Assembly: GCA_000165345.1 (NCBI GenBank)
Contig: CM000430.1
Span: 608,001 to 672,000 of the forward strand
DNA: 64,000 nt
Direction of reading: 5' to 3'
Shown: positions 3,401 to 58,972 of the stretch, one piece after another
How the letters are laid out: each line of letters begins with the position of its first letter
Position numbering within the stretch: position 1 is the stretch's first letter
Made by a program: the position numbers and the translations under genes
Notes under the pieces: generated by a model
Told to the model about the DNA's origin: nothing
Seen by the model: the letters and a program-made list of their open reading frames with translations, nothing else
Database searches by the model: none

Positions 3401-6400
3401 AAATTAAAGAACTAATCTCCTCACTTTCAGAAATGAATTCACTAATGTTGAATAACGTTAAAAACAATTCTTTATCTAGGCTTATCTCTTTTGAACATGA
3501 AAGCAGCTTAATAGATTCTTCAGAAATAAAGAGATGCTTTACTGTGTAGATTATTAGCCAATAGCTAATCTTTGGATCTTTAATGTTATCAAAGTTATTC
3601 AAATTTAATTCTGAAGTGGAAAAATCAGCTACTTCCTTAAATACTCTTAAGAATCTTCGAATTTTAAAACCCGTTTCAAATACATCTTTTTGTAAGCACA
3701 CACTTTGATTAGTTATTGAACTGTTTAAACAAGCCAAAATTCTCACAAGTCTTTTGAACAAAATTTCATTTTCAGAACTCTCCTTATAGCAGGTGTTTGA
3801 TGCTTCTATGCCTTTGTTTGAACTCCTGTCAATTAAAAGAGTTAGTTTAAAAATAGATATAACTTTATTATCGCGAATCTCATCACCAATACTAAATACC
3901 TCAAAAAGAAGAATCTTTTCCAGCCTTGAAATTTCGGCTCTGAATCTTGAATTAATCAAATTGTGGCTTTTTGAAAAAATAGAATCAATAAAAGGGATCA
4001 AAATATTTCTAGATTTTGGATTCTCAAACCAAAAATCATTATCTGAGTATATTAGTATAGATAAAAGCTCATTAACAAAATCCTCAGAAATAATACTGTC
4101 ACTATTGATTAAATTAATTAATAAAACTCCAATCTGTGACGCTTCTTTTATATTTGAATTTGAGATTAATTTGTTTGTAAGAGTTGACTTGAGCTCCATT
4201 ATAACTAGGTTCATTAAAAAATCTGAAAAGGAATTTGATTGATTAACAAGTGAGGTTTTACTCAATTCCACAAACAAATGAATGTAGCACTCCTTGAAAT
4301 CTAATCTGTAGGAATTCTCACCATTTATGTTGCTTTCTTTATTCTTTCTAATCGCTTTGTCAGTCTTGATATTGTGTTTTTGAGAAAAAGAGAATATCTT
4401 GTAAATTCTATCTAATATGTTTGCATTAACCTGGGGGAACACTTTGCATACTGCTTCCAAAAAAAGTTGTGATAAAGATGTCTCTTTTTCTGTTAGCTGC
4501 TTATATAAGAAAGATTCTATCGTGATGGATGTTAAAGAGTCTGTATTACCAATAATAATGGAAATCATTTTTTCTAGAACAGATCTTTCGTTAAGTTCCT
4601 TTTGAGAAAGAGCTAAAATAAAAGGCGTGAATATATTTTCCAAAATTTGGTATATAATATTAACTCTTTTAAAATTAGTTTCAAGTTGCTCTTTCGAAAG
4701 TATTTCTATCAAATCCGTAAACATATTTAAAAATAAACTAATAACTTGCTGGGAATTTTCTGTTTCTTTGCCATCAATTGGCTTAACGACTACTTCTGTA
4801 ACAGCTTTATTAATCAGCTTTGATCTTGTAGTAATAGTTTCACATTCGCAATCAACATTATTTCTATCCAGAAGATTAATATGTAAAAAGGTTTCATGTG
4901 ATGTTTCTTCAAGCCAGAGCAAAACATGATCAATAAATTCTGAGTCATGTTTATTGAGAATTGCACATAATTCCAAGAATATGATGATTCTGTAGGAGTT
5001 TTGGTTTGTTAATGATCCAGATCTAAGTGTTTGGTCTTTATTTGTTTGATTCATATAGAATCTAGTCCAATAACCAGTTAAAAAGTCATTTAAATTAGAG
5101 ATACAATGATTAAGGTTCCTTTCCCTACACTGTTCTACTGACCAGCTGTGATATTGTAAGGAATCTATCATCATGTTTGAAAATTGTTCATTGATTTTAA
5201 ATTGAGCTTTGGAGTGGATTGATGAATTAGTAGAACTTGAAGCAGTTTTGTTAGTTGTAAGAATGAAAATTACTGGACTCCAAATGATCTTTGCGTAGTA
5301 GTTAATTAGAAATTCTTTAAGTTTAAATTGGTTTTCGTCAATTTTAATAAACTTTTTGTGTAAGAAATGCAACAAAATTGTGTAATAACTTTCTAGTGAG
5401 CAGTTTAATAAGACAGTATTTGGAGTTCCTATAGATATTACAATGGAACCACTTTCAGGGTTTGAGGTAAACTTGACCAAATGTAAAACAATACCAAGAG
5501 GGATCAGGCAAAGTAAAGGTAAGCTATTATTTTGAATGCTTTCATATAAGAATGCCATGAGCTCATTAAATGTCTTAAAATAAAAATCTGGTTTATTTAT
5601 AATTTCATTTATTAGATATATTTCATTATTAAGATTTGAGAACTCATCTAATAGAACCTGAAATGGGATGTTTGATATTATATATGGCAATTCAGAAAAC
5701 AATGAGCGACCACTTATTTGATTAGGGTTACTTAGACACATCAATAAAGTTTTTGTAAAGTATTTAATCGGAGAACCAAATAACTTATTAGGGCCTTGAT
5801 TCCAAATTTCTGGAAATAATTTTGAAAAAGCGGAAATAAGATTTGGAGAAACAGCTTGAACATTGGAATTAGATGTGTCACTTAGGCACTTGAGAGCATC
5901 AGTGAAGAGTTTAGAGATGGGGGGAGTATGATTTGATAAATTATTAATATTCTCGGGATAACTCAGTTTAAGTTGATTTAGGATGATAGTCATTGAATAT
6001 GTCAAAAGCTGAATGGCATCTACCCTGATAATGCTACTGTAATTACCTGTGATAAACTTCCACAGGGTGCCCATTTGCAAGGTATTCCAAGAAAAACTAG
6101 CTTTTGATTTTTCAAGAATTTGGCTTACCACTGGAGGGAGTGAATTGAAAATTAGATGAGATGCGATTTGAAAGGAAATCAAAGAAGACGACTCGCTTTG
6201 CATAGCTTCCATAACTTTTCTAACAGATGTAATAGAAATAGATATGATTCGGTCAAATAGCTCTTCCTCTTCTGATTGTGATGAAACATTTGCATTTAAT
6301 TCACCTTTAATATTCTTTAAATTACAGCTTAGCAACCTTCCGTATAAATCAAACATTGATATTAAACAGAAATTTATTATTTTAACCATTTTTTCTGGCC

Positions 6401-6944
6401 TGTCTTTCCCAATTAGTGCCTCCAAGAAGTCTGAAGCAGATTTTGATACATCTGGCTTGAGATCATTGCAAGAAAGCCAAAGAGCAGGAAAAAAAAGTTT
6501 GCAAAACTTCTCTAATCTCTTCCCACCAACAATTTTGTGTAGAAGAGACAAGCATTCATTTGAAAGCCTTCTTATTTTTACATCTGAATCATACACACCA
6601 ACCCTGATATATATATAAGTATAGTTAGAAAGAACAGGCTCCCAAACTATTTCTTGATCAGGGGTTTCGAGAAGATGAGAAAGTTGCTCTTTAAATGCTA
6701 CCAGTCCTTTCATTCTAGTCAAAACATCTTTCTTAGACATATTGGTAAAAATTGGGACGAAGGAAGAGTGAAGGGAAGATATGGTTAGTTGTTCTTTGGT
6801 ATGAAGTGCATCGGGGTCGCCTAATGGAACGTTAAACTCGGAAAAAATTCCCCATAAAGATGTTGCAACTCCTACCCGGCCCTCGCCTAGCAGAGATATA
6901 GCTTTTGAGCTATTAATTGAACTTTTAAATTTCTCTTTTGCCAT
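456..6944 (-). CDS. LTN1: Listerin/LTN1-type E3 ubiquitin ligase (ribosome quality control), 2162 aa, single exon
   Basis: Uninterrupted 6.5-kb ORF starting at a true ATG (6944). The N-terminal block MAKEKFKSS...LLGEG resembles listerin N-termini. The long HEAT/ARM-like body ends in a C-terminal RING (CLICYS...CHTCNNIFHSECIYKW...CPLC) at the extreme C-terminus, as in LTN1/Rkr1. Confidence 0.8.
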   Translation of the reverse strand: MAKEKFKSSINSSKAISLLGEGRVGVATSLWGIFSEFNVPLGDPDALHTKEQLTISSLHSSFVPIFTNMSKKDVLTRMKGLVAFKEQLSHLLETPDQEIVWEPVLSNYTYIYIRVGVYDSDVKIRRLSNECLSLLHKIVGGKRLEKFCKLFFPALWLSCNDLKPDVSKSASDFLEALIGKDRPEKMVKIINFCLISMFDLYGRLLSCNLKNIKGELNANVSSQSEEEELFDRIISISITSVRKVMEAMQSESSSLISFQIASHLIFNSLPPVVSQILEKSKASFSWNTLQMGTLWKFITGNYSSIIRVDAIQLLTYSMTIILNQLKLSYPENINNLSNHTPPISKLFTDALKCLSDTSNSNVQAVSPNLISAFSKLFPEIWNQGPNKLFGSPIKYFTKTLLMCLSNPNQISGRSLFSELPYIISNIPFQVLLDEFSNLNNEIYLINEIINKPDFYFKTFNELMAFLYESIQNNSLPLLCLIPLGIVLHLVKFTSNPESGSIVISIGTPNTVLLNCSLESYYTILLHFLHKKFIKIDENQFKLKEFLINYYAKIIWSPVIFILTTNKTASSSTNSSIHSKAQFKINEQFSNMMIDSLQYHSWSVEQCRERNLNHCISNLNDFLTGYWTRFYMNQTNKDQTLRSGSLTNQNSYRIIIFLELCAILNKHDSEFIDHVLLWLEETSHETFLHINLLDRNNVDCECETITTRSKLINKAVTEVVVKPIDGKETENSQQVISLFLNMFTDLIEILSKEQLETNFKRVNIIYQILENIFTPFILALSQKELNERSVLEKMISIIIGNTDSLTSITIESFLYKQLTEKETSLSQLFLEAVCKVFPQVNANILDRIYKIFSFSQKHNIKTDKAIRKNKESNINGENSYRLDFKECYIHLFVELSKTSLVNQSNSFSDFLMNLVIMELKSTLTNKLISNSNIKEASQIGVLLINLINSDSIISEDFVNELLSILIYSDNDFWFENPKSRNILIPFIDSIFSKSHNLINSRFRAEISRLEKILLFEVFSIGDEIRDNKVISIFKLTLLIDRSSNKGIEASNTCYKESSENEILFKRLVRILACLNSSITNQSVCLQKDVFETGFKIRRFLRVFKEVADFSTSELNLNNFDNIKDPKISYWLIIYTVKHLFISEESIKLLSCSKEISLDKELFLTLFNISEFISESEEISSLILQFSQYLVSEQIHHLPDFQQISNTAQFILGEYSKPESRFIMTLASDFYVYLFELMSDNERMKNEYLSIIIDYLYSNIFESNSISLFLSLIKIKQRGIELPEAYSELSKRILDEFNIEMKNLSEFKEKNYMKITRLIHCAKAIIIDEGLPEYKIESDIDIIMTLIEALAEELSNLGNTNSLNMYNLFGLCNLMAVLIELFEEYLTNYIQGKDIQDNIELEFQYGNLEISKLMIRLSSSIHYLVGKFFEISTSEIYNNTKTAKKLNEYSITIQYLVLNTIKLSCSIYQRLKLYPEGETIPDEHRFTSVTIQLETNVLSTFDKFLGLLSTVLMSKNNFTVDTGLRIFIEQMVILKNSEDTGKMWILAVLESKLGNIKGNAMEISKLLTTNSLKLHSLVLLILKEHNWHNVQYEYSDLNSAISSIEKLDHCIREYLISKNKDSDFDEIEDQDQDEQEDKYETLHANINHETNTSECLNNPERKPLILDSDSENFERGIEVIASHWRRLIGPSLAQQLLETYFSAINVSYFEKKDDPSTEISGSLSFLNSIYIDASQRLGCWNFILPKLISEDFVICTDKENPNIKTIEKNLTPCIESLLELNPIVIGEAVREKQVNLKSEVNSDFLPSYLEDEDVSICQALQFFVKGRKSSELIQDEIVLKNTTFSGLVDILDASDVLEITQKTIKLSLIHVLVELAFQTLVILEDHIRVEETGNSIESYSNKMINSQTNWLALFKHSSNNERRKLLTANLEEILQLDPNSNSESMVWDSSNLYFTWLLATRIILSLTTYFPRILREIWLRNSNNKTQAILQKLVINYFSPIIIPIELNHIPLIIEKMSNPDRKITFDHNVSSRAIKMSYSERGFTATLSFTFSQHHPLVIPKVNIPSVVGVSKKQNSNWLISVIKAVRYKNVTHAILTWINNLSLYLDGVEDCLICYSIVHPQYRSLPRKRCHTCNNIFHSECIYKWFRTSNKTTCPLCISLMH

Positions 6945-7173
6945 TTATATTCTTGTAGTCACTAAGGCAAATAAAATTAAAATAGGCGGCGCCAAGGATT
7001 AAAACAAAAATCTAATTTTTAATTGACAAAGTTATCAAAGCCAGTAGTGAGCTAACACAAGCATATGCCTAGTTAGATATAAATCCCATTTACTTGTTTG
7101 AATTTTTAGATTTAAATTGACAATTAGAACTACTCTTTTCAAATATTAAAAGTTCACACTGACATGTTAGTAT

Positions 7174-7203
7174 ATAGGCGCCTATCTATGGCGCCTATAT
7201 AGG
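7174..7203. promoter_or_regulatory. Twin E2F-like GGCGCC boxes (GGCGCC-N7-TGGCGCC) in the divergent LTN1/PP5 promoter
   Basis: The sequence reads tatataGGCGCCtatctatGGCGCCtatatagg, and the first copy lies inside the 14-bp palindrome TATAGGCGCCTATA. It sits 120-230 bp from both start codons. Confidence 0.5.
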
Positions 7204-7323
7204 ACGAGTTTGTCCAACTGTGACGGAATTGGGGCGTAAGAACAATTACAGAAAAGTTTGGCATTTCTTGCCAGTAAATACAAGCTGCAAATAATAATTA
7301 ACTAAAGAAGAGAAGCAGGAAAG

Positions 7324-8901
7324 ATGTCTGATGAGAACACAAATTCCGTGAATGAATCAGTTTCTGAGCAATACAAAATCAAGGGAAATGAGTCTTTTAA
7401 ATCTGGCAAATATAACGAAGCTATTGAATATTATACATTGGCTATAAAAACCTCACAAGCTTCAAATGAAACCCAAAATAAAAACTTGCATATCTACTAT
7501 TCTAACAGAGCATTGTGTCACATTAGGCTGGAGAACTTTGGCTCAGCAATTGAGGATTCTGGGGAAAGTATCAAATGTTGCCCGAGTTTTTCAAAGGCAT
7601 ATTATAGAAGAGGTATTGCATATTTCAACTTGCTTAAATATTCCCTTGCAAGAAAAGATTTTATGATGGTTTTAAATTTAACTCAGAATGACAGAGATGC
7701 TCAATCAAAGATTCAAATTTGTACCAAATTAATCAAACAAGAAAAGTTTATGGATGCAATTTCAACTGATAGATCAAAATTGATACATGAGACTATAGAT
7801 TTCAGTGCGCCTGGTTTCGTGGTTTCTAATGATTATTCAGGGCCTCACTATAAACCTTTGGCGGATCATTCAAAATTTTCCCAATCAGGCAACGAAACTA
7901 ATTTGAAATCTAGAGAATTTGTTATACCTAAAGTGCCAGATGCTTCTCTTATTAGAGAGTCATTTGTTACTGAGCTAATTGACTTTTTAAAGAATCCAGA
8001 AAATAGGTTGCATAGAAAATACGCATATATGATTGTTTATGATTTAATACAAGTACTTAAAGAGGTTGCTTCTAAGCCACTAGTCAGAATTAATATTGGT
8101 AAACAGGAACATATTACTGTATGTGGAGATATCCATGGCCAGTTCTTTGATCTTTTGAATATTTTTGATATTAATGGTTTACCTTCTGTAAACAACGGGT
8201 ATTTGTTTAATGGAGATTTCGTAGATAGAGGGTCATTTTCTGTTGAAGTAATTCTTGTGCTTTTTACTTTAAAGATTATGTATCCATATCATGTACACTT
8301 GGCTAGAGGTAACCATGAAACAAAGAATTTGAACAAGTTGTATGGTTTTGAGGGAGAAGTCTTAGCAAAATATGACTCAGGTCTTTATGATTTGATTAGT
8401 GAAGCATTTTGTTTCCTTCCTTTGGCGCATGTTATTAATGATAAAGTTTTCGTAGTGCATGGAGGTCTTTGTTCAGAAGATAATGTAAAACTTAGTGACA
8501 TTGAACAGCTTTATTCTAGATGTGAGCCAGCTGATTCCGGATTTATGTCTTCATTACTTTGGTCTGATCCACAACAAAAGGAAGGAAGGTCTCCTTCTCC
8601 TAGAGGAGTGGGATGTAATTTTGGACCAGATGTAACGCTCAATTTTCTTAAAACTAATAACTTGGACTACATCATTAGAAGCCATGAAGTTAAACAAGAA
8701 GGTTATAGCGTTGATCATGATGGAAAATGTATTACAGTCTTTTCTGCACCAAATTATTGTGACTCTATGGGTAACAAAGGTGCATTTATAAAAATACACG
8801 AATACGACCTTAAACCTAACTTTGTTCAGTTCTATGCTGTTCCACACCCACCAGTTCCAGCAATGAAATATGCAAATTCTATGCTTTCATATGGAATGTA
8901 A
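7324..8901 (+). CDS. PPP5: Serine/threonine protein phosphatase 5 (N-terminal TPR repeats plus PPP catalytic domain), 525 aa
   Basis: ATG at 7324. The TPR region (YKIKGNESFKSGKYNEAIEYYTLAIK...AYYRRGIAYFNL) is followed by PPP catalytic motifs GDIHGQ, GDFVDRG, GNHE, HGG and the C-terminal SAPNYC. Confidence 0.9.
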   Translation: MSDENTNSVNESVSEQYKIKGNESFKSGKYNEAIEYYTLAIKTSQASNETQNKNLHIYYSNRALCHIRLENFGSAIEDSGESIKCCPSFSKAYYRRGIAYFNLLKYSLARKDFMMVLNLTQNDRDAQSKIQICTKLIKQEKFMDAISTDRSKLIHETIDFSAPGFVVSNDYSGPHYKPLADHSKFSQSGNETNLKSREFVIPKVPDASLIRESFVTELIDFLKNPENRLHRKYAYMIVYDLIQVLKEVASKPLVRINIGKQEHITVCGDIHGQFFDLLNIFDINGLPSVNNGYLFNGDFVDRGSFSVEVILVLFTLKIMYPYHVHLARGNHETKNLNKLYGFEGEVLAKYDSGLYDLISEAFCFLPLAHVINDKVFVVHGGLCSEDNVKLSDIEQLYSRCEPADSGFMSSLLWSDPQQKEGRSPSPRGVGCNFGPDVTLNFLKTNNLDYIIRSHEVKQEGYSVDHDGKCITVFSAPNYCDSMGNKGAFIKIHEYDLKPNFVQFYAVPHPPVPAMKYANSMLSYGM

Positions 8902-9075
8902 TCTATAATCTAACATAAATCTTAGAAGTCCTTTAATATGTCTTGGCTTAAGCTAGACTATATAAAATTAAAAACAATAATTAGAGTAGATTCCTAATTA
9001 AAAAATGAAAGAATGGTTTGTTAATATAATAATGCTTAATTATCTTTAGCCAATGAAAATTGCAATTCAACTATA

Positions 9076-9665
9076 CTACTGAATGGAATCATCTATAGGC
9101 CCCAAAAAGTCACTGTTCATCTCTGCCACGGCTGACAAAGTTTCATTGTTGACTCCCCTTAGCCTAAGTCTAACTTGTGAATTTTGTTTGATTTGAATTT
9201 GAGTTTTTGTATCTATATATATTCTACTGCTCTGACCATCGATTCCGCTTTTGTAGACCATATTTTCGGGTAAAGCTGACTGGCTTACAAAAACTCTTTT
9301 TAGAGGACCACAATCTACGATAACTCCTAATTCATTTACACTCTCAACAACCCCATCTACAACTTCTCCCTTAATTGGACGATAAACAATAGCCTGATAT
9401 TTCACAGGCACAATTATAAGCCCTGTGCTATCTTGCACTCTACCAGGTTGTTTTAAGATGATCTTGATCACACAAACAACGTATCCATAAGGAGGTGCTC
9501 GTTGTCCCTCGACCTGAGATTAAGTAATTATTCAAATCTAAAGTAACAATTTCATTTTAAACGTACCTGACTTCTTAAAATATCGTCTATATGCTCATTA
9601 TATCTCGGGCCAAGCTGGCTTGGCTTGACAGAAATATTTCTCCAAAGCTCCACAAAGAAAAACAT
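9076..9665 (-). CDS. RPB7: DNA-directed RNA polymerase II subunit Rpb7 (S1/OB fold); two exons join(9076..9513,9567..9665)
   Basis: Exon 1 (ATG at 9665, MFFFVELWRNISVKPSQLGPRYNEHIDDILRSQ) has the canonical MFF start of Rpb7. A 53-nt intron (GTACGT...TCTCAG, 9514..9566) is phase 0. Exon 2 continues VEGQRAPPYGYVVCV...YQAIVYRPIKGEVVDGVVESVNELGVIVDCGPLKRVFV, matching the Rpb7 core (YRAVVFKPFKGEVVDG...VGPMKVFV). The ORF-track entry 9076..9471 is the exon-2 part, called from a GTG pseudo-start. Confidence 0.75.
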
Positions 9666-9747
9666 TGTTTGAGATATCTCTCTTTAAAACCTGCCTTAAT
9701 CTCGATACCTCAGAATAATCTTTTTGCTCTGTAAATATTTAAAAGAA

Positions 9748-9769
9748 GGAGCGCCTGATTGTTGGCGCC
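9748..9769. promoter_or_regulatory. Bipartite E2F-like element GGAGCGCC-N8-GGCGCCAA in the divergent Rpb7 / 1104-aa-gene promoter
   Basis: ggagcgcctgattgttggcgccaattg is nearly the same composite element as the one at 17994. Confidence 0.5.
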
Positions 9770-9861
9770 AATTGTATTAATTTAATATTTAATAAGAATT
9801 ATTATGTAGCAAAATATTTTAAAAAGTATAAGACCAATAAGGGGCAAAGTTGATCATCAAT

Positions 9862-12800
9862 ATGGCTAAGGCTACTGCGCTTGAGCTCCTGGAATCTCTT
9901 TACAATGAGCTGATGAAAAAGGCAGAGGAAGGTGCCTACAGTGGGGAAGTCTTAGAGCAATATGCATGTAGTGTGCTTGCAAATTTGCATGCAAGCAAAG
10001 ACCCATTTGGTATTTACCATCAGGAATTGGCTTCTCAAGATGATCGAAAAAAAAGGCCAAACAATCCGCTTAGCCATGTAATACGTAGGCTGACAGAAGA
10101 AATCTTTGCGATCACAACAACTTGCAGCTATCCCATTTTGTTAACCCCGAGGCTCTATATAGTATGTGTATCATTATTAAGTGAATTATCTTTGGGAAAG
10201 CTTTCTCCTTTATTTTTAGAAACATTCGATGGCTATGCGGACAAATTTGAGAAGGATTTCAAACCATTAATGTTGGAAGTGTTTATCAGGAAGGCTCCAT
10301 GGCAGATACTAGTAAAAAATCTCAACTATCTGATAGGAAATGTAAAATCTGGAGTAGCTGGAGCCATGTGCGACAGTAAAATAAAGATAGAGTTTCAAGA
10401 GCTAAGCTCTATCACTAGCCCTGAGATGAGTAATTTAGGATTGTTAAATTTCCTGCCCCTATTTTTTACAAATTTCGAGTCTTTAAAAAAAGGAATATTA
10501 GAAGGCAGGTATTCGTTTAATTTCAACTCAAGTAAGGACAAAATTAAAGCAAATAGTAAAAGAACTTCAAGTTTGGTAGGCTTTAATACAATTATTGAAA
10601 AAACAAAAATAGTTGAGAGTTTTATTTCCAAAAAAAACGAAAAAACGACTCCAACTGAAATAATTAATCAAGCATTGGATAATTTTGCACTGACAAGAGT
10701 TAGCATTGCAGCTTTGACGAGAATTTTTACTAAATTCGGAATTGAGTCTGGTAGGAAAGAATTAAAAGAATTTAATTTAGATATTAGTTTTATTATTAAT
10801 TCATTTGAAGCAGTTATAGCAACTTTGCTTTCTGGTACCGAGATGTTTAGTTTGAATATGTGTGAAGGCAGTGACAAAGTATTCGAATCAAAGCATAAAG
10901 AAAACCCACAAGCAGTCTTACAACAAATATTTGAACTAGATGGAAGCATTTCAAATGATATCTTTACCTTGGAAAATAAGACAAATATATATTTCCCTTT
11001 CCATTTCCTTCATATTCAAATCGTTTCTGGGCTAAGAAATTTAATTATAAGCATGAGCAATTTTAAAGACTCAAATAAAGTAATACAAAATTCTTCAAGC
11101 TTAAATGATTTAATTATTGCCTATATTATGAGGATGTTAAATCAAATAGAAAGGATTCTCGAGTTACAAGGCTTAAATTCAACTAAACAAGATCATGAAA
11201 ATCCTTCATTTTCTAGTTCAGGAATTAATAGGTTTTTGGAGTTGATTCCTTCCGAAACTATTTTTTTAATTCAAGAAATGTCAAATTACTATTACCCATG
11301 TAGATCTATATTTAAAAAAAAGTTATTAGACATTCATGTCTCTCAGTTGAAAAACACTGAGCAAAGGGTTTCCTCATTTTTTATGACTTCTTTTACTCAA
11401 GTTATAAGTATGGAAGTTGGAAATGATTTAGATTGTGATTTACTGATGGAATCATGGGATCGTATCTTCAGGGATGTTGTGTTCCCAAATTTACTGGATT
11501 CATATACAATTGATTTATTTATAACTATGATTTGTAATCCCAACACTCTCAATAGCTTATCTAGAATTAATATTGAATCCTTTCTAGGTAAATATTTGGG
11601 AGTAATTACAAGGATTCTAGCTTATCATCCAGATTTATCAGCCAAACCAATTCTTGTATTTATTATGAATTGTGTTAAAAACTTAAAGATCCAAATGCCT
11701 AATTATGAATGGTTAGCTAATTGGATGAAGATTATTTTGAGTGCAATTTGTATGCCATTGATAACTCTCTTCCCACAGAAAGTTAATTGCGATGTTAATG
11801 ATCTCAAAGCAGTAATTAGCCCCATCAAGCCTAATAATAGAATCCTGAATTCCCTTTCAATTTTGGTTTACCCTAAGATATATTCCGATAATAGAAAAAA
11901 GGGAAAACTTGATTTAATGCATATTATTTCTGATCTCTCAACTAATCTTTTGTTGGTATCAATATATAACTCTAACTATACAGGAAACAAAAGATTACAC
12001 ACTATGACAGCTTTAAATGTTTGCATTAAGTTACTTGATTTGTTAATTAATGATTTAATTGACTCACTTGAAAGCCACAATAAACAAACAGGGAGTGATT
12101 ATTTACTTTCAGATGAGTCGATAATTAGTATAGAAAAGAAAAATATTGCCAAATTAATTTCTGGAATATTAAAGGTATTTCCTTATTTATTCCACCAAGG
12201 AGCAAACTATTCTCAAGAAATCTATGAAAAGATCGTAAAGCTTATTACTTTCATTTTTACTAGATTTAATGAATTATTATTCTCTGATGAGGTTTTCGAA
12301 GTCGTTTTAAATTTATTAAAACTGGATTTTCATTCTAACCTTGTAATAATTTCTCCAATTTGCTGGGCGATTGGAGAAGTTTTTATTTCAAAGATCGACG
12401 ATAATTCTCTTGAAGAACATGAAACAAAAATTTTCAAGCTAATTAATAGCTTAAAGTCTTTGATAGAAGGTTGTTGCACGAATTGCAATCAAGTAAACAA
12501 TGAATTAAACAAGAAAAACTGCAACTCTGGAACTGACACAGACTCGAATACTGGTTTAATGGATGAAGCTTTAAGTGAATGCTCAGATTCTTCATATTCT
12601 TCATTTATTTCTGACTCTTCTCTTGAAATTGATAGCGTTGCTTCAGAAGATGAACTTGAAGACGATACTATCGATAGTATTGTATATTCTAGTGGTGGAG
12701 CTACCGGCGAAGGAGGAAAAATGGCATTTATTGACCATTTTACAAATAATGAATATTATAATAACAAAATTTATAGAACAATGAGTGAAATTCTGAATGA

Positions 12801-13164
12801 AGATGATTTGAAGGATGTATACAAATATTTGGACAATATTTACCTAGTAGAAGCTATTATATCAACTTTATGCAAGATTGGATTAAGTTGTAAACAATCC
12901 AAATCAAATATAATTACTTTACTGGAGATATGTTTAAGAAAGTTCCAAATTAGGGGTTTTGAAAAGGATAACTTCGAAGACGAAAATTTAATTTTCCAGG
13001 AAGATCAACTTTTACAATATTCAAGATTCATCTTATCAAAGAAAATTAGTCTTTGTATTAAATCACTGAACCACTCATCTGTCTTTTCTTCTGCATTAAA
13101 CAAGCCAACAGGACCTCCAAGCACCTTATTTTGCAATAAAAGCTTAAGTTCAATATTGTTCTAG
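9862..13164 (+). CDS. Large conserved hypothetical protein (about 1100 aa, probably helical-repeat), function not recognised
   Basis: Long uninterrupted ORF. The track start (9850) is a TTG, and the first ATG is at 9862 (MAKATALELLESLYNEL...). An acidic Ser/Asp-rich segment lies near residues 870-920. No diagnostic catalytic motif was seen. Confidence 0.6.
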   Translation: MAKATALELLESLYNELMKKAEEGAYSGEVLEQYACSVLANLHASKDPFGIYHQELASQDDRKKRPNNPLSHVIRRLTEEIFAITTTCSYPILLTPRLYIVCVSLLSELSLGKLSPLFLETFDGYADKFEKDFKPLMLEVFIRKAPWQILVKNLNYLIGNVKSGVAGAMCDSKIKIEFQELSSITSPEMSNLGLLNFLPLFFTNFESLKKGILEGRYSFNFNSSKDKIKANSKRTSSLVGFNTIIEKTKIVESFISKKNEKTTPTEIINQALDNFALTRVSIAALTRIFTKFGIESGRKELKEFNLDISFIINSFEAVIATLLSGTEMFSLNMCEGSDKVFESKHKENPQAVLQQIFELDGSISNDIFTLENKTNIYFPFHFLHIQIVSGLRNLIISMSNFKDSNKVIQNSSSLNDLIIAYIMRMLNQIERILELQGLNSTKQDHENPSFSSSGINRFLELIPSETIFLIQEMSNYYYPCRSIFKKKLLDIHVSQLKNTEQRVSSFFMTSFTQVISMEVGNDLDCDLLMESWDRIFRDVVFPNLLDSYTIDLFITMICNPNTLNSLSRINIESFLGKYLGVITRILAYHPDLSAKPILVFIMNCVKNLKIQMPNYEWLANWMKIILSAICMPLITLFPQKVNCDVNDLKAVISPIKPNNRILNSLSILVYPKIYSDNRKKGKLDLMHIISDLSTNLLLVSIYNSNYTGNKRLHTMTALNVCIKLLDLLINDLIDSLESHNKQTGSDYLLSDESIISIEKKNIAKLISGILKVFPYLFHQGANYSQEIYEKIVKLITFIFTRFNELLFSDEVFEVVLNLLKLDFHSNLVIISPICWAIGEVFISKIDDNSLEEHETKIFKLINSLKSLIEGCCTNCNQVNNELNKKNCNSGTDTDSNTGLMDEALSECSDSSYSSFISDSSLEIDSVASEDELEDDTIDSIVYSSGGATGEGGKMAFIDHFTNNEYYNNKIYRTMSEILNEDDLKDVYKYLDNIYLVEAIISTLCKIGLSCKQSKSNIITLLEICLRKFQIRGFEKDNFEDENLIFQEDQLLQYSRFILSKKISLCIKSLNHSSVFSSALNKPTGPPSTLFCNKSLSSILF

Positions 13165-13445
13165 TCTATACTCATAACTAGATGCACTAATTTATTATTT
13201 TAGTGCAAATTTCCCAACTACGGATTCATTTATGCATTTATTCATGAACTTGATTAAGGTTCACGCTAAAGGTTAGATAAACCCTCTAGTCAATAAATTA
13301 GAAGAAATCGCCGAAAAACCCTCACAAGAAAATTAGTTAAAATATTAATATTAAGACCAATATTACTATTGATATCTGCGAATTCTACCAGAGTTGGAAC
13401 CTTTCCTCCCTCTATTATCACCCTAAAATCATAAACTAAATCTCT

Positions 13446-14123
13446 TTAGGCAGAAGCTTTAGCTTTGGTAGCCTTCTTTCCAAAATTCTTAGCTTCAATA
13501 AATTGTTTGCGTAGTGTAGAGAATGCTCTGAATTTTCTCTCCTCAGGAGTAATAACGTGAGTCTATAAGAAAAAGTGATTAATTTAAATCTATAGAGTTA
13601 ATAACGACATACTTACCTTAACAGCCAAAGTCTGGGCCTTAATAGGGAAAGCCTTTTCATGGCTTACATTCTTCAAGGCCTTGAACTCCTCTCTAGCAGA
13701 GTCATTTGGAATACCAGCGAAGCCCTTCTTAGTCTTCTTTCCCTTTCTTGGTTGAAGAACGATTCCATTAATATACTTCTTTAGACGGTCAACATTGATT
13801 TGGAATGTCTCTTCAGATAAGTCAGTTCTTCTGTGGTCAACAGCAATTCCAATGCTCATTGCAGCCTTTTTGTTAATTCCACAAGCTGAGAGCTCTTCAA
13901 GAGTGAATCCTCTTCCAAGACGGGTTTTCATGTTGTAACGTTGTGTTGGTGGGTGGACAATTGGTCTCAACATTCCAACAGGTCTAAAGCCTGCCTCAGC
14001 AACTGCCTTTTGACGAGCAATTCTGCGGCTTTGCTTTCTACCTGGCTGGTTATACCATGTCTTGATCCAGCGTTTGTAGTTTTTGTGATAGTGCACATTG
14101 GGAATAACGTTGTTATGACGCAT
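13446..14123 (-). CDS. RPL13: 60S ribosomal protein eL13 (L13e); two exons join(13446..13562,13617..14123)
   Basis: Exon 1 reads MRHNNVIPNVHYHKNYKRWIKTWYNQPGRKQSRRIARQKA...AQTLAVK and is classic eL13. A 54-nt intron (GTAAGTATG...TTCTTATAG, 13563..13616) is phase 0. Exon 2 reads THVITPEERKFRAFSTLRKQFIEAKNFGKKATKAKASA* and matches the conserved eL13 C-terminus (VITEEEKNFKAFASLR). The track ORF 13590..14123 runs into the intron. Confidence 0.85.
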
Positions 14124-14512
14124 CTTTAATCAAGATTTAGGTTCTATTCTTCTATTATATGAATCTATATATATATAAATATATTCGTCCTTAGACTCCT
14201 TTCTATACTTCTTTCCAACTTAATACTAGAAGGAAAGTTGAATACCTTTTAAAAATAAAATATTTAAGCTTTCGAAAAGATGTCTCGATTACAAATTCAA
14301 AGCAGTCTTTATAGCCTTTATTTTCAAAATAATTGTTGGCTCTCTTTTTTTCTTAATATTTTATTATTTACTATAATAAATAATATTAAATACAAATTTA
14401 CTCTAATTTTATATTTAATTTATAGTTAATTTTCTTTCCTATTAATTTCTTATAAAAAAGTATTACGAGACAGAAATCAACAATGCCGGTATTTAATATA
14501 ATATTATTTGAT

Positions 14513-14596
14513 TTGGGCCGCGTCTCGTCTCATACAAAAAAAAATTTATATTAATCAAAAAAGACGTGCATGGTTTAGGCGCCGTCTCAAGACATC
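14513..14596. promoter_or_regulatory. Paired GC-rich CGTCTC-containing boxes in the shared eL13/uS9 divergent promoter
   Basis: gggccgcgtctcgtctcatac and ggcgccgtctcaagacatc are the only GC-rich islands in the 640-bp spacer between the two ribosomal-protein genes. Confidence 0.35.
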
Positions 14597-14763
14597 AATA
14601 TTAAAATATTAATTATTTAAATAAATAATAATTGGGGGAAGAAAAAATCGTAGTTAAATAGAATTAAGGAGGAAAAAATTGCATAAAAGAATAATCGACT
14701 TGGATTAAGTTGGTTTGTTTTAATTCTTGAATAATATTATTTTTCTGATTCTATATTTAGAGG

Positions 14764-15198
14764 ATGACTATGGAAAGCCGTATGGTTCAGACCTTTGGTC
14801 GCAAGAAGAATGCTGTTGCAGTAGCTCTTTGCAGAGAAGGAAAGGGATTAGTTCACTTTAACGGAAAGCCTTTGGATCTTATCCAACCAGAACAACTCAA
14901 GGTTAAGGCTTTTGAGCCAATTCTCTTATTAGGAAAGCAAATTTTTTCTGGAGTAGATATTAGGATCAGAGTGTCAGGTGGTGGTTACACATCTCAAGTC
15001 TTCGCAATCCGTCAGGCTTTAGCCAAGGCAATTGTTGCTTACACTCAGAAGTTTGTAGATGAAGCAACAAAACAAGAAATCAGAGATATCCTCGTTTCTT
15101 ATGACCGTTCATTGGTCATTGCTGATCCAAGAAGATGCGAGCCAAAGAAATTCGGAGGTCCAGGTGCCCGTGCTCGTATTCAGAAGTCGTACCGTTAA
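14764..15198 (+). CDS. RPS16: 40S ribosomal protein uS9 (S16), 144 aa
   Basis: ATG at 14764. [15 protein letters not shown]...[22 protein letters not shown]...[23 protein letters not shown] is near-identical to eukaryotic S16. Confidence 0.9.
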
Positions 15199-15600
15199 TT
15201 TTAGTATGCTGGAGTTATTCAGGTTCGGGTGGGATCGGGAGTTCCTTCAAGAACTATTTGCAGGGACACCAAAATCAAGAAAAAAAATATGTCTCATTTC
15301 GGTTTGCTATGACTACATTACGAGGTTCTACTATGTATTTACTCTTATGTCGGCTATTTGCTACTAGAAGTGGGCTAATACTATTTACCTTTCAGATTAG
15401 TATATAAGTTCTTGTTCCTGGCCTTAATACTCATCGAATATTATCAGACTTTGAGACATTTGAGGGTTTACTCTTTACTTTATCCCAAGTATCTAATTAG
15501 TATATAAAAGGATATCGATTTTAATAGTTAAATTTATTAGGAGTCTATGTTTCTTTGCTTTGCCTCTTCCCATTCGCTGTACCTTAACGGTTTTCAGATG

Positions 15601-17844
15601 CTAGTTTACTACATCATGAAGTGAGTTTAAAAAGTCTTGGTGGGAGATTGTTGAAGAGTTCTTGAATTTGTGTTGGACTAGTTCAAGGGCAAATAGTAAT
15701 TTTTTGATAGGTACTGGGAACCTAAGAGAATCCGAGATTTTCGTTAAAGTATCAGGTGTGAACAATCCATTCTGATAGTAGTCTAAAATTCCTGGAACGT
15801 CCTGTGATTCAACTGAAGGAACTCTAATCGACAAGTTAAAAATATCAGCCAAACCAGAAGTATGAACAAATTCGTACTCAGAGGTAGTTGCAAGTATTAG
15901 AAGCTTTCTTCCTTTAGGTGCTCTGTTCTTAATTAAAATCATAATAGTCTGTAATACAATATTTGAAAATCTGGGGCCAATAGCAGTAAAGTCCATCAGT
16001 CTTTCAATATCATCCAGAATAATACATGATATATCGCTCTTATAAGCATCACTAAATGTTTTTCTCAGCTCTTGACTTCTTGCTGACTCGCTCATACCCA
16101 CAAATTGGAGGGGACTCTGCAATTTTGTAAATGGGAATCCTCCTGTAATTGCAATATGAGCAGCCAAGGCGGACTTTCCCGTTCCTTTATCTCCATATAA
16201 CAAAACAGCCAATGTAGAAAGATTCTCATCTGTTTTGATCTGTTCGGAAAGCCTCTTTAATAGCTCTAAGTTCCTTTGTGACTCACTACCCAACTTTATT
16301 ATTCCTCTAGGAACTAAACTTTGCAACTCATCTTCGTCAGTACCAAATGCAGGTTGCACCTCCTCTAATGCTGACTCAAAATCACTTCTGCAAACCTTAA
16401 TGTTCTCAGCATCCATTGGCTTAGTCATATCTCCCATGTCAATATGGCGTTGAAATGCAAAGGATGTTGCAGACCTTACCAGTCCTTCCAGCTCAGCACC
16501 TGAGAAGTTGGCAGATTCTTGTGCCAAAGCACTTAAATCTACATCATTTGCCAATCTGGAGCTTTCTCTCATTTGCTTAGTATGAATCTCAAGAATCTCC
16601 AATCTTCCCTCAGAGTCAGGCAGTCCTATTTCAATCTGAACCTCGAAGCGCCCAGGTCTTAAAAGGGCTTCATCCAAGAGATCCAACCTATTTGTCATGC
16701 CTATCAATAATATGTTGTTAATGCTATTAACTCCATCAATTTTGCTTAATAGCTGATTAACTACGCTGTCACCAACTCCTGTTGAACCACTTGATCCTGC
16801 TCCCCTACTTTTGCAAATGGCATCAAGCTCATCTAAAATAATAATATGTAGTGCAGAAAAGTCTCCTTTTTGACGATACTCATCTTCTGCCTCTTTAAAT
16901 AAGTTTCTAATGTTTTCCTCGCTTTGTCCAACATACTTATTTAAAATTTCAGGTCCATTCACAATTTTGGGCTCCCTAGCTTTGAGAACTTTTGCGATCT
17001 GTCTGGCTATTAAAGTCTTTCCTGTACCTGGAGGCCCATGTAAAATCAAGCCCTTAACATGTTGTATTCCCAACTCCTTTAGTAGCTTTGGTGGAATAAC
17101 TCTACTTGCAAAAGCTCTTCTGAAAATGACAGAAAATTCATCGTCTAGGCCACCAATACCAATGTCCTTAAAACTGAAATGATGTCTGAATAAGGTCGGA
17201 GCACTTCTGTGGTCATTCTGAAATCTAACTGTTCCTGTTTTAGATCCTGTTAATTCCATGTTTGTAGAGTCAATTACTAAAAAATGAGAATTTTTAGAAT
17301 CAGAGTGTTCTTTCTTATTGCCATTTGATAATAGGCTATCTAGAGATAAGATATCTTTTACTGTCAATAGTAACAATAAATTCTCTTCCTTATAGAAATA
17401 TGATACCTTTTGGCCTTGTGTAACTACTTGATTACGTATGCTTTGTAAAATACCTGGAATTATTCTTTCACCATCTAATAAAAGCTGTTGACTAGATCCG
17501 ACAAATAATTCTGCCTCAAGCAAAAGAGTTCCAGCAATGCTCTTTGCAGCTTCACTACCAGTAGTTCCAAATCCCACAGCTAATTCAACTTCTATTCTCT
17601 CCCTTGATTCAATCCTAGCAAATTGGCGATGCAATCTATTTAATGCTAATTCCCCATGAGCAACTCTTTCATCTACTTCAATATTCAAAACAAGATTTTT
17701 AACTAAAATTCGAGGTTGCCCAGTTCCACTTTGCGTGTTAGAAAGATTCTTTAAAGCTGTATATGTTGAAGAACTTACATATGCAAAGTTTGTGAATGCC
17801 AGCTCTTGTGCAGGCAAATTGCACGAAACTAAGGAAACCGTCAT
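15601..17844 (-). CDS. NSF: Vesicle-fusing ATPase NSF/Sec18 (two AAA+ domains), about 747 aa
   Basis: The D1 domain carries Walker A GPPGTGKTLIARQIAK and the D2 domain carries GDKGTGKSALAAHIA, with the NSF N-domain upstream. The track start 17862 is a TTG, and the first ATG is at 17844 (MTVSLVSCNLPAQE...). Confidence 0.85.
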   Translation of the reverse strand: MTVSLVSCNLPAQELAFTNFAYVSSSTYTALKNLSNTQSGTGQPRILVKNLVLNIEVDERVAHGELALNRLHRQFARIESRERIEVELAVGFGTTGSEAAKSIAGTLLLEAELFVGSSQQLLLDGERIIPGILQSIRNQVVTQGQKVSYFYKEENLLLLLTVKDILSLDSLLSNGNKKEHSDSKNSHFLVIDSTNMELTGSKTGTVRFQNDHRSAPTLFRHHFSFKDIGIGGLDDEFSVIFRRAFASRVIPPKLLKELGIQHVKGLILHGPPGTGKTLIARQIAKVLKAREPKIVNGPEILNKYVGQSEENIRNLFKEAEDEYRQKGDFSALHIIILDELDAICKSRGAGSSGSTGVGDSVVNQLLSKIDGVNSINNILLIGMTNRLDLLDEALLRPGRFEVQIEIGLPDSEGRLEILEIHTKQMRESSRLANDVDLSALAQESANFSGAELEGLVRSATSFAFQRHIDMGDMTKPMDAENIKVCRSDFESALEEVQPAFGTDEDELQSLVPRGIIKLGSESQRNLELLKRLSEQIKTDENLSTLAVLLYGDKGTGKSALAAHIAITGGFPFTKLQSPLQFVGMSESARSQELRKTFSDAYKSDISCIILDDIERLMDFTAIGPRFSNIVLQTIMILIKNRAPKGRKLLILATTSEYEFVHTSGLADIFNLSIRVPSVESQDVPGILDYYQNGLFTPDTLTKISDSLRFPVPIKKLLFALELVQHKFKNSSTISHQDFLNSLHDVVN

Positions 17845-17993
17845 ATCAAGTCCACTCCTCAAGGAAAAATATAAATATTAGAAAATTTCAATGAGTTTTT
17901 TCTCTTTTTAAGTTAATCAAATTACTCCTTTTTAATTCTCGCTTGTCCTTCACCTTACCCACAACTATAGATTAAAAAATTGCAAAAAAAAGC

Positions 17994-18016
17994 GGAGGCG
18001 CCTGAGTCTTGGCGCC
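17994..18016. promoter_or_regulatory. Bipartite E2F-like element GGAGGCGCC-N8-GGCGCCAAA in the divergent NSF / 175-aa-gene promoter
   Basis: ggaggcgcctgagtcttggcgccaaattt has the same architecture and an almost identical spacer (TGAGTCTT against TGATTGTT) as the 9748 element. Confidence 0.5.
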
Positions 18017-18109
18017 AAATTTCATGTCAAGATTAGATTTACAATAATGTTAGAAGAACTAAATAAAAGTGAATATTAAAAGGGATTTGAAGAAAATTAA
18101 TTCAAAGAA

Positions 18110-18637
18110 ATGACAATATTTGAGGTGAAATTGTCTTCAGCAACAACTTTGCAGGATTTATTGGGGGAAAATGAATATGTTAAAGACAATTATAAGAACT
18201 GTGATATATTAGTATTAGATTATGAGGGAAAAGAAAAATTGGGTTTTTTAAACCGTGACATACTATTGACAGATTATAGACTAATTTTTCTTAAAGATGC
18301 TGAATATTCAACTCAGAATTCAAAAATTCCCAGCAAATTCTCTTGTGGGGACTACATAAATATTTCATCTATTATTGTTAACGCAGTTTCATCGTGTGAA
18401 AAAGCTGAAGATAATCCGTATTTATACGTTCAATTAGGTGATCCTGAATTTAATGAAGACAGTGATGAGGATTTGGAGTCTAGTCACCGCTTTTCCGAAA
18501 TTAACATTCGTTGCTCTGACCAAAATACTATCTATACGCTTTTCAATTCTATATCGGAAACAGCCGCATATATGGAGCAGCTAGAGAACTTATCTGATTT
18601 AAAATCGGATGATGAGTTAACAACTGATCAAGAATGA
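18110..18637 (+). CDS. Small acidic hypothetical protein, 175 aa (possible PH/GRAM-like fold)
   Basis: Clean ATG-initiated ORF with Cryptosporidium-like codon usage. It has an acidic C-terminus and no recognisable motif. Confidence 0.5.
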   Translation: MTIFEVKLSSATTLQDLLGENEYVKDNYKNCDILVLDYEGKEKLGFLNRDILLTDYRLIFLKDAEYSTQNSKIPSKFSCGDYINISSIIVNAVSSCEKAEDNPYLYVQLGDPEFNEDSDEDLESSHRFSEINIRCSDQNTIYTLFNSISETAAYMEQLENLSDLKSDDELTTDQE

Positions 18638-19099
18638 CACTAATTTTTGGGTAAATCTTCTCATTTAGTTTTTCTAATAAACCTTTCTAAATTACTTTCA
18701 TTATTAATACAATTGATATCCAAAAAGTAGTATATTTTTATCACCTCATTTTTTGTATAACTTCATATTTAATTTTCTTTCTGATTTTTCAATGATTTAT
18801 TCTATTCAAATATATTTATTTACTCTTATAATATTGATTGCAAACTAATGGAAATGGCGCCATGATCTTCAAAGATAGTAATGCATGCGGAGTATCACAA
18901 AGACGAATATACTAAATTCCTATAAAACAACATAAAAGATTAATTTATAAAGTATTAATTAATCTTAAATAAGAATCTTAGTTTTAAAATTTATATTTTC
19001 AAGGGATAAAACAATATATCACAGTAAAGTTAATAACGATTGCCTAGATCTAGCAATTATCTGTAAAGCAGAAATTAAATTGATCGAATATTCACAAAG

Positions 19100-40933: not shown

Positions 40934-41039
40934 TTTGAGTGTATTTGATAAATCATCAATATTGGGAGTATATGTTATGTTAACTGGAGGTATTTGTTGT
41001 TTTTGCTGTAGTAGTATTTGATTTTGTAGTATTAGTAGA

Positions 41040-41700
<661 letters not shown>

Positions 41701-41709
41701 AGTTTGGTT

Positions 41710-44043
<2,334 letters not shown>

Positions 44044-58024: not shown

Positions 58025-58940
58025 TTCATAAGATCTAAAAAAATCAAAAATTGAATATTTTCAAGTTTTTAGTAATTAGAAATTTTAAGTCTCAATTTCA
58101 GGCGCCATGTAACTCTACAATTTGCAGTTGATTTATTTCATGCATATACATGCAAATTCAAATGCAAAATATAACAAAAATTTCCGGTATGGTTAACTAT
58201 TTTATATTGAGTGTTTCAAATTTGACTTTTGAAATTGAGATTCAATAAAATATATAAGCTTACCTGACAAAAAAATTATGAAGTCCATTTTGAAGAGAGT
58301 TCTTGGAAGAAAATAAGGAAATAAAGAAAAAAAGAGTATTGATAATATTTCTCGAGGCTGTCATTTTTGCTTGAGGGATAACAATAGAGTTTAGACGAAA
58401 AATACGTAATTTTAAAATTTAATTGGTTTTTTTTTTATTGTTGTTAATGTTGATCTAATTCTTTTTTTTCTTCTTCTTGAATTAGTTTACCATTACCTGT
58501 TGTTCTTTTCTATTACTTATTAAAATTTCCTCTAGAAATAATAATTCTTTCTTATTGTGGAAATATTCTTATATATTCAAAAATATTTGTTTTTCCCACC
58601 TTTACTAATATAATATTATTTTAAAATGATATTTTTTTTAGATTAAATCCTAATTACTTGGGTAGATCCCGCCAAACATGCAAAATTTTCAAGATTATTA
58701 ACTTTTTAAAATATGGGGGGCAGATCGTGAATTTTAATTAATATAAATAGTGAGCGGGCGTACAGGATACTGACAGAATGACATAAACAGCAAGAAATAA
58801 AAGAGCTAACAGAAGAATAGTATTTAAGTAAGCAAAGATCTAGTCTTACTGTTTGTTTGCTTTTTCTTTCACTCTTTTACCCACTTTATTAATTATTTAA
58901 TTGCAACATTTGCATTAAGCTATTTAAAAAACTAATTCAT

Positions 58941-58972
58941 CCCGCCACATAATGCCGCCGCATGTTGCCGCC
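58941..58972. promoter_or_regulatory. Three G/CCCGCC boxes with exact 13-bp periodicity upstream of LSM14
   Basis: CCCGCCacataatGCCGCCgcatgttGCCGCCtaattcg has box starts at 58941, 58954 and 58967. Confidence 0.4.

Follow-up and report, generated by a model that had tools for sequence, protein, structure and literature searches.

Paired E2F-like boxes with constrained spacing in divergent promoters of Cryptosporidium parvum

Does the E2F-like promoter motif of Cryptosporidium parvum also occur in a paired form with a spacing of its own, or do single copies merely come to lie side by side? The question is raised by a stretch of 64,000 nt (GenBank assembly GCA_000165345.1, contig CM000430.1, positions 608,001 to 672,000 of the forward strand; here called the window), in which two copies of the box GGCGCC, or one copy and a close variant, stand 7-8 bp apart in three spacers between divergently transcribed genes. 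The window is A+T-rich (31% G+C) and its genes are densely packed. As a single element the box is well known: motif 3 of C. parvum, DTTGSCGCCH or 5'-TGGCGCCA-3', heads the list of over-represented upstream motifs (Oberstaller et al. 2013, PMC3734150), the related motif 4 reads TTTGGCGGGAAV, and the same authors credit Bankier et al. 2003 with the earlier observation of an E2F-like motif. A typical E2F/DP site covers about 12 bp, with a 6-bp CG core between a T-rich and an A-rich flank (PMC3734150). In sporozoites, the E2F motif is the most prominent one in peaks from the assay for transposase-accessible chromatin with sequencing (ATAC-seq), with more than half of these peaks annotated as bidirectional promoters (bioRxiv 10.1101/2025.01.17.633476). 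Among apicomplexan genera, Cryptosporidium alone is reported to have retained E2F/DP factors. C. parvum possesses genes for two E2F and two DP proteins (PMC12246861), namely cgd1_1560 and cgd6_1430 for E2F and cgd7_3650 and cgd8_1850 for DP.

Four arrays of closely spaced boxes were found in the window (Table 1). Sites 1, 2 and 3 are those of the LTN1/PP5, Rpb7/1100-aa protein and NSF/ICln-like spacers; their second boxes start at 7190, 9764 and 18011, and the box cores within each site are 13-14 bp apart. The initial annotation had described twin GGCGCC boxes with a gap of 7-8 bp at all three loci, which stands for sites 1 and 3 but not for the left box of site 2. The hexamer at 9750 is AGCGCC, a non-palindromic sequence whose match to GGCGCC is limited to the GCGCC starting at 9751; the other five boxes of sites 1 to 3 are exact. 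The initial annotation half conceded this imperfection with its spelling GGAG(G)CGCC. Site 4, absent from the initial annotation, holds three variant boxes and lies 636 bp upstream of the start codon of LSM14/Scd6.

GGCGCC occurs 13 times in the window where 0.8 copies are expected, and the arrangement GCGCC-N5-10-GGCGC three times where shuffled sequences yield 0.01. Within 60 bp of any exact GGCGCC only three partners with at most one mismatch exist, all of them at a gap of 7-8 bp; expressed as ordered incidences, these gaps hold five partners versus 0.04 expected (Poisson P ~1e-9), about 1.1 being expected over gaps 0-54. When the boxes were placed uniformly inside their own intergenic spacers, all three pairs fell at gap 7-8 with P ~1e-5, and the less post hoc range of gaps 0-20 gave P ~1e-2. 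With the box generalised to SSCGCS or SGCGSS, four of the six adjacent pairs within 60 bp have start-to-start distances of 13, 14, 13 and 13 bp, versus 32 and 46 bp in the remaining two, and site 2 contributes another 14-bp distance once AGCGCC is counted. No GGCGCC-type pair with a gap of 9-54 bp was found in the window or in any orthologous spacer.

For sites 1 to 3, syntenic loci with identical gene order were compared in eight other species, and for the LSM14 site in four, the LSM14 locus of C. andersoni being the only one from a gastric species. Strict pairs, defined by one exact box and one with at most one mismatch at any gap from 0 to 40 bp, have a gap of 7-8 bp in 18 of 20 cases and a gap of 6 bp in one. 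Site 1 consists of two boxes with a gap of 7 bp in eight of nine species; C. felis has AACGCC-N7-GGCGCC. Two boxes with a GCGC core are present at site 2 in all nine species, with a gap of 8 bp in C. parvum, C. meleagridis, chipmunk genotype I, C. ubiquitum and C. canis and of 7 bp in a Logan species, C. felis, C. xiaoi and C. ryanae. The gap of 8 bp at site 3 is shared by C. parvum, C. meleagridis, chipmunk genotype I, C. ubiquitum and C. ryanae, the last with CCCGCC as its second box; C. canis has a gap of 6 bp. The proposal of a paired form with constrained spacing is supported: the pairs are non-random under the null models and have been retained at syntenic loci. We regard the spacing as constrained because independent loci converge on 7-8 bp, changes stay within 6-8 bp and other distances are absent. 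Constancy of spacer length among orthologues was also considered as proof of the constraint and was rejected, since on its own it is not significant against the density of insertions and deletions (indels) in the flanks.

What evolution has kept in these arrays is the boxes. In box-anchored comparisons, mean pairwise identity is 0.96 and 0.92 for the two boxes of site 1 versus 0.26 for the spacer between them, 0.75 and 1.00 versus 0.46 at site 2, and 1.00 and 0.82 versus 0.26 at site 3. The spacers are about at background, most flanks having pairwise identities of 0.34-0.73, and the core columns of the boxes are invariant within intergenic spacers that are otherwise 65-66% identical. Where a box varies, the change is almost always at edge position 1 or 6, leaving GCGC intact. 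The difference in identity between boxes and spacers across species shows that both boxes are under purifying selection and that the sequence of the spacer is neutral. The arrays are real and conserved, and as a variant of the known motif they are new.

The initial annotation had gone further and included a GGAG 5' flank and a TGA-containing spacer in the element, which did not survive the comparison: no species other than C. parvum and C. meleagridis has both. At site 3, chipmunk genotype I shares the GGA, and chipmunk genotype I, C. ubiquitum, C. canis and the species beyond have other spacers and flanks. Since neither GGAG/TGA nor the spacers are conserved, the composite consists of a box, an unconstrained spacer of 7-8 bp and a second box, and nothing more. 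The near-identity reported for the copies at 9748 and 17994 is correct for C. parvum, as sites 2 and 3, read by eye, match in 24 of 28 aligned positions and differ by two 1-nt indels. An origin of this likeness by duplication or from a mobile element was rejected, there being no similarity beyond these 28 bp and different spacers in the other species; the likeness is best read as a coincidence within a lineage.

The LSM14 array still has its three boxes in C. ubiquitum (gaps 5 and 7), C. canis (7 and 8) and C. felis (6 and 5). Just past the right end of the window, upstream of ArfGAP, lies a further array of the form CCCGCC-N27-30-GGCGCC-N4-7-GGCGGG, whose close pair has gaps of 6, 4 and 7 bp in three other species. 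In C. andersoni, the 17.9-kb LSM14 locus (L012) contains no six-base E2F-like box. It has just seven of the 5-mers GGCGC, GCGCC, CCCGC and GCGGG, all of them intergenic, and the LSM14 promoter carries CCCGCT-N10-GGCGCT. In the gastric clade, the motif seems to be shorter and its spacing different.

Generalised boxes are concentrated where promoters are expected, with 34 of 38 located in non-coding DNA (29% of the window). Nine of the ten divergent spacers contain such boxes, as do seven of the nine tandem ones, i.e., 16 of the 19 spacers that contain a promoter, and none was found in the nine convergent (3'-3') spacers of the window; among spacers, the boxes are restricted to the promoter side. 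Two GGCGCC copies inside the PGI gene (55979 and 56246) were considered as internal promoter boxes and rejected, as they encode a conserved Gly-Ala and decay by synonymous changes in C. felis and C. andersoni. Because of the non-coding bias, the lack of boxes in convergent spacers and the coding explanation for the PGI copies, the boxes behave as promoter elements. Single boxes, which the initial annotation had listed for other promoters, are present within a few bases of where it had placed them, at 6988, 18856, 37344, 47930, 50671, 52660, 54597 and 58101. They remain single across species and have conserved flanks of their own, and those at 6988, 14578, 18856, 52660, 58101 and others are ordinary members of the published motif class.

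The assignment of the boxes to the E2F-like class over-represented in upstream regions likewise agrees with the published C. parvum motif. The E2F/DP class (TTTSGCGCSAAA) is characterized by the core [C/G]GCGC[C/G] or SSCGC, and this is what the arrays contain: five GGCGCC and one AGCGCC at sites 1 to 3, and CCCGCC, GCCGCC and GCCGCC at site 4. All 13 SGCGCS hexamers in the window are GGCGCC. A T-rich 5' and an A-rich 3' flank are present at the right-hand boxes of site 2 (gttGGCGCCaat) and site 3 (cttGGCGCCaaa); these two are near-perfect E2F sites of the form TTGGCGCCAA(A). Such flanks are absent from the left boxes of site 2 (ggAGCGCCtga) and site 3 (ggaGGCGCCtga) and from both boxes of site 1 (ataGGCGCCtat and tatGGCGCCtat).

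How might a pair of boxes differ in function from a single one? The explanation that we favor, and consider fairly probable, is the simultaneous and probably cooperative occupancy of two abutting E2F/DP sites. Each array would be a pair, and once a triplet, of E2F/DP-type sites within a compact promoter. If a site comprises 12 bp, namely the 6-bp core and 3-bp flanks, then at a centre-to-centre distance of 13-14 bp two full sites would abut with 1-2 bp to spare. Both sites would be needed, two heterodimers would be bound at the same time and would probably touch each other, and the array would keep the promoter open and drive transcription of the nearer gene at the least. Joint occupancy would account for the weak edge in the partner box, for the free inner flanks and for the convergent spacing at independent loci. 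Strong and weak boxes do occur together, as in TTGGCGCCAA beside AGCGCC, and weak boxes (AGCGCC, GGCGCT, GGCGCG) persist over long evolutionary distances. The identity of the bound factor as E2F/DP, the cooperativity of its binding and the use of the arrays in both directions are inferred parts of this model.

Several observations weigh against this model, and some of them would suit other explanations. The sample of arrays is small (3-4 loci in 64 kb), and the site 3 pair is gone in C. felis, which has a single box, and in C. xiaoi, which has none. Pairing by chance, as clustering of a common promoter motif, could draw on the fact that there are three pairs only and that the range of 7-8 bp was picked after the data had been seen; it has next to no probability, being rejected by every null tested, and pairs persist where the surrounding spacers of other species no longer align. 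A stronger competitor, although still an unlikely one, is that the arrays are two independent E2F-like sites in the closest packing that 12-bp footprints permit within a short promoter or a narrow nucleosome-free zone. Gaps indeed cluster at the smallest non-overlapping values (6-8 bp), single boxes are commoner and are conserved as singles, and mixed-type arrays are looser than the twin ones, with gaps of 5-8 bp at LSM14 and 4-7 bp upstream of ArfGAP in other species, i.e., 4-8 bp altogether. Moreover, indels are not demonstrably rarer in the spacers than in their flanks. The flanks carry 0.07-0.12 indel events per alignment column over the whole tree; at this rate, the 22 bp of spacer should have changed length about two times, and about two such changes are seen. 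However, a packing limit predicts a tail of longer gaps, and there is none at 9-54 bp; the placement null reaches P ~1e-2 even for gaps 0-20, and the persistence of weak partner boxes is easier to explain if a strong neighbor stabilizes them. The boxes could also be halves of one bipartite site, GGCGCC-N7-8-GGCGCC, for a dimeric or tetrameric factor other than E2F/DP, the single boxes being a separate matter. Conserved half-sites around a free spacer of near-fixed length are the classical signature of a bipartite site, and most boxes of the twin arrays have no canonical T-rich and A-rich E2F flanks. In addition, according to a 2025 review, no Cryptosporidium E2F/DP protein has been tested functionally and no binding experiment with one exists (PMC12246861), so the factor is assigned by motif similarity only. 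Against a bipartite factor speaks that each half is a hexamer that also occurs and is conserved alone at many promoters, that sites 2 and 3 each have a near-perfect E2F site as their right-hand box, that the variant halves CCCGCC and GCCGCC are E2F-type SSCGC cores, and that no candidate factor is known; we consider it improbable.

A different type of explanation, to which we assign a very low probability, is that the arrays act through nucleic-acid structure, as the self-complementary boxes could form a 6-bp G+C stem with a loop of 7-8 nt in a DNA cruciform or an RNA hairpin. RNA hairpins are predicted with -10.1 to -20.4 kcal/mol, and the lowest value belongs to site 1, where a perfect 12-bp inverted repeat (TATATAGGCGCC / GGCGCCTATATA, 7171-7201, z = -4.5) results from the boxes together with TATATA at 7196-7201 and its counterpart at 7171-7176. 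Across eight species, covariation in the site 1 flanks is 0.214 versus 0.108 in shuffles, none of 500 being as high, and partial complementarity recurs with other bases in C. ubiquitum and the Logan species. Yet most of this covariation consists of TA/AT swaps in TATA-like sequence of related species, which is possible without structure. Sites 2 and 3 lack complementarity beyond the boxes (z = -2.0 and -1.8), and the triple array, a direct repeat with the same period, cannot pair at all (z = +0.58). The 18 variant box pairs found across species are mostly broken (14), with three wobble pairs and one compensated pair, and site 3 of C. ryanae combines GGCGCC with CCCGCC. As a general explanation, a hairpin or cruciform is therefore rejected by the folding results and by the counts of variant pairs, leaving a weak signal at site 1.

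Whether paired E2F/DP sites would serve one gene or both neighbors may differ among the arrays. The position of all four arrays between divergent genes recalls the bidirectional promoters of compact genomes. Three of the arrays are in short spacers (379 bp at site 1, 197 bp at site 2 and 265 bp at site 3), within the 1 kb that a shared bidirectional core allows between divergent genes. Site 4 departs from that pattern with a spacer of 1653 bp, in which the 636 bp mentioned above separate the array from the nearer start codon. Four of the ten divergent spacers contain an array and none of the nine tandem ones does (Fisher, p ~0.054), so a link with divergent spacers is suggestive only. Sites 1 to 3 are located about 90-130 bp upstream of the start codon on the plus strand; this distance is kept from C. 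parvum to C. canis or C. felis and is not kept in C. xiaoi and C. ryanae. Site 2, with one start codon at a distance of 85 bp and the other at 92 bp, occupies the middle of its spacer, and by this position it appears to be the best candidate for a shared bidirectional core. The start codon of LTN1 is 232 bp away from site 1, which adjoins a conserved block on the PP5 side, and since LTN1 has its own proximal box at 6988, shared use is argued against here. The genes next to the arrays are of housekeeping types. The sole classical E2F target in the window, a gene for a replication factor C (RFC) subunit, has a single perfect TTTTTGGCGCCAAAT and no pair, and nothing in these data supports a specifically cell-cycle role for the pairs.

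Paired sites with defined spacing are known from other systems. The adenovirus E2 early promoter has two inverted E2F sites that are bound cooperatively with the help of E4 orf6/7, and the mammalian E2F1 promoter has double sites as well. These resemble the present arrays in having two sites per promoter, the number and spacing of which matter for stable occupancy; they differ in being asymmetric (TTTCGCGC type), in having a defined orientation, in lying further apart and, in adenovirus, in using a viral adaptor, whereas the cores described here are palindromic and abutting, with no adaptor known. Gal4-type sites (CGG-N11-CCG) have a spacer of fixed length and free sequence, and the arrays share with them the conserved ends, the neutral spacer and its narrow length range. 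Here, in contrast, each half is a complete palindromic site that is also found alone at other promoters, and spacers of 6-8 bp are tolerated. The closest relative is the E2F-like motif of C. parvum, which has the same hexamer core and the same restriction to upstream regions in the same group of organisms; the published motif is single-core (PMC3734150), and the arrays add the 13-14 bp period, the unconstrained inner flanks and a pairing that is kept across the intestinal clade. The published accounts covered here treat single-core motifs (PMC3734150) or one motif per peak (bioRxiv 10.1101/2025.01.17.633476), or state that spacing is still to be considered. A literature search of incomplete coverage found no prior description of an E2F-like pair with fixed spacing. 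The single box is known; the fixed-spacing pair appears to be new.

The side-by-side arrangement amounts to a testable grammar, in which pair versus single box, spacer length and the combination of strong and weak boxes can be varied, and it points to cooperative occupancy. As the E2F-like motif is the most abundant promoter motif and ranks top in open chromatin, the arrays bear on how four proteins read it. They could serve as natural probes in binding and reporter experiments and as a feature for promoter annotation and for minimal transgene promoters. A bolder extension, which we find possible and at the same time rather doubtful, is that arrays with a period of 13-14 bp form a distinct genus-wide element, read by a higher-order E2F/DP assembly of two heterodimers in contact and marking constitutively open, often bidirectional housekeeping promoters. 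There might then be several hundred arrays, a figure extrapolated from 3-4 arrays in 64 kb to the 9.1-Mb genome, and they might be the main route to stable occupancy for the four E2F/DP proteins. If the arrangement is not genome-wide, it would be a local curiosity of four promoters.

Table 1. Arrays, accompanying elements and neighboring genes. Positions are those of the window unless another locus (L009 to L011) is named.
Feature	Position	Strand	Location or remarks
Array site 1	7177-7195		LTN1(-)/PP5(+) spacer; GGCGCC-tatctat-GGCGCC (ataGGCGCCtatctatGGCGCCtat), gap 7
Array site 2	9750-9769		Rpb7(-)/1100-aa protein(+) spacer; AGCGCC-tgattgtt-GGCGCC (ggAGCGCCtgattgttGGCGCCaat), gap 8
Array site 3	17997-18016		NSF(-)/ICln-like(+) spacer; GGCGCC-tgagtctt-GGCGCC (ggaGGCGCCtgagtcttGGCGCCaaa), gap 8
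Array site 4	58941-58972		Divergent spacer; CCCGCC-acataat-GCCGCC-gcatgtt-GCCGCC, 13-bp period
LSM14 array with CGGTACCYCA/GTCTTGT region	58941-58990; L009 9459-9500; L010 9353-9400; L011 9492-9570		
ArfGAP-upstream array	L009 14414-14459; L010 14388-14439; L011 13820-13871		
Single GGCGCC	6988-6993		44 bp upstream of LTN1 start codon; comparator; GGCGCC, GGCGCT or AGCGCC in all aligned species
TGACATG	7160-7166	+	10 bp outside box 1 of site 1
TATATA	7196-7201	+	Directly after box 2 of site 1
Conserved block of ~120 nt	7202-7323	+	Between site 1 and PP5 start codon; many invariant columns, C. parvum to C. felis
TGACATG (CATGTCA)	18023-18029	-	6 bp outside box 2 of site 3
LTN1-like RING protein	456-6944	-	Pfam
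PP5	7324-8901	+	Pfam
Rpb7, with intron	9076 to ~9664	-	Pfam
NSF-like AAA ATPase	15601-17844	-	Pfam
175-aa Voldacs/ICln-domain protein	18110-18637	+	Pfam

Further conserved elements accompany the arrays. The block of about 120 nt on the PP5 side of site 1, which includes the invariant GGACGAGYTTGTCC, is conserved far better than the rest of the LTN1/PP5 spacer and is probably the 5' leader or the core promoter of PP5. The region 7196-7323 was also considered as a non-coding RNA gene driven by the pair of boxes, and this found no support, with no Rfam match and no convincing covariation. TGACATG has three copies in the 64 kb versus 6.7 expected, two of which adjoin an array and point away from it. 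The copy at 7160 is kept in C. parvum, C. meleagridis, C. ubiquitum, C. canis, the Logan species, C. xiaoi and C. ryanae and has diverged to TGGGATG in chipmunk genotype I and to AAACATG in C. felis; at site 3, 'tttcatgtca' is kept from C. parvum to C. canis. TGACATG overlaps the published motif 7 (ACATGY) and could be a start-site or partner element.

Site 3 (17956-17990) and the triple array (58878-58915) are both preceded by TACCCAC followed by ATTGCA, the latter resembling the published motif 13, WATTGCA. The sequence TACCCACA upstream of site 3 is conserved out to C. xiaoi and C. ryanae. In all four intestinal species compared, the triple array is followed by a conserved CGGTACCYCA, which adjoins its last box in every one of them but C. 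felis. Beyond it lies GTCTTGT, conserved in the same species and also recognizable in C. andersoni. This region may contain the start site of a long LSM14 leader.

Gene names were taken from Pfam matches and from the annotation of orthologous loci. They agree with the initial annotation for LTN1, PP5, Rpb7 and NSF and for the divergent layout of all three spacers; the partner of NSF, which it had left as hypothetical, has a Voldacs/ICln domain. Pfam also identified RPL13e and RPS16 in the window. The 1100-aa protein next to site 2 is encoded by an open reading frame (ORF) at 9862-13164 on the plus strand, has no Pfam match and is 97% identical to C. hominis CHM_2g2980 according to a protein search, which places the window on chromosome 2 of C. 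parvum or of a very close relative. Orthologues of graded similarity were found in C. meleagridis, chipmunk genotype I, C. ubiquitum, C. canis, C. felis, C. xiaoi and C. ryanae, and the protein search did not return one from C. muris or C. andersoni. A Cryptosporidium-like Logan contig (L005, SRR31860986) encodes an orthologue with 59% identity and keeps the gene order and both arrays. Elsewhere in the window, the 2-kb bin 40001-42000 has a very strong G-over-C skew (+0.54); a 419-aa ORF ends and a 777-aa ORF starts within it, both lacking a Pfam match.

Two of the single boxes are embedded in longer conserved sequences. At 14578-14597 in the RPL13e/RPS16 spacer, the single box is followed by the palindrome GTCTCAAGAC, which reads GTCTCGAGAC in C. 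xiaoi and C. ryanae. The surrounding block acgtgcatgg...GGCGCCgtctc is kept in most of the compared species, no box having been found in C. canis, and it is a candidate ribosomal-protein promoter element. Upstream of a 704-aa gene, GGCGCCATGATCTTCAAAGA at 18856-18875 is near-identical from C. parvum to C. felis and has an ATG directly after the box; it may represent an unannotated first exon or an upstream ORF.

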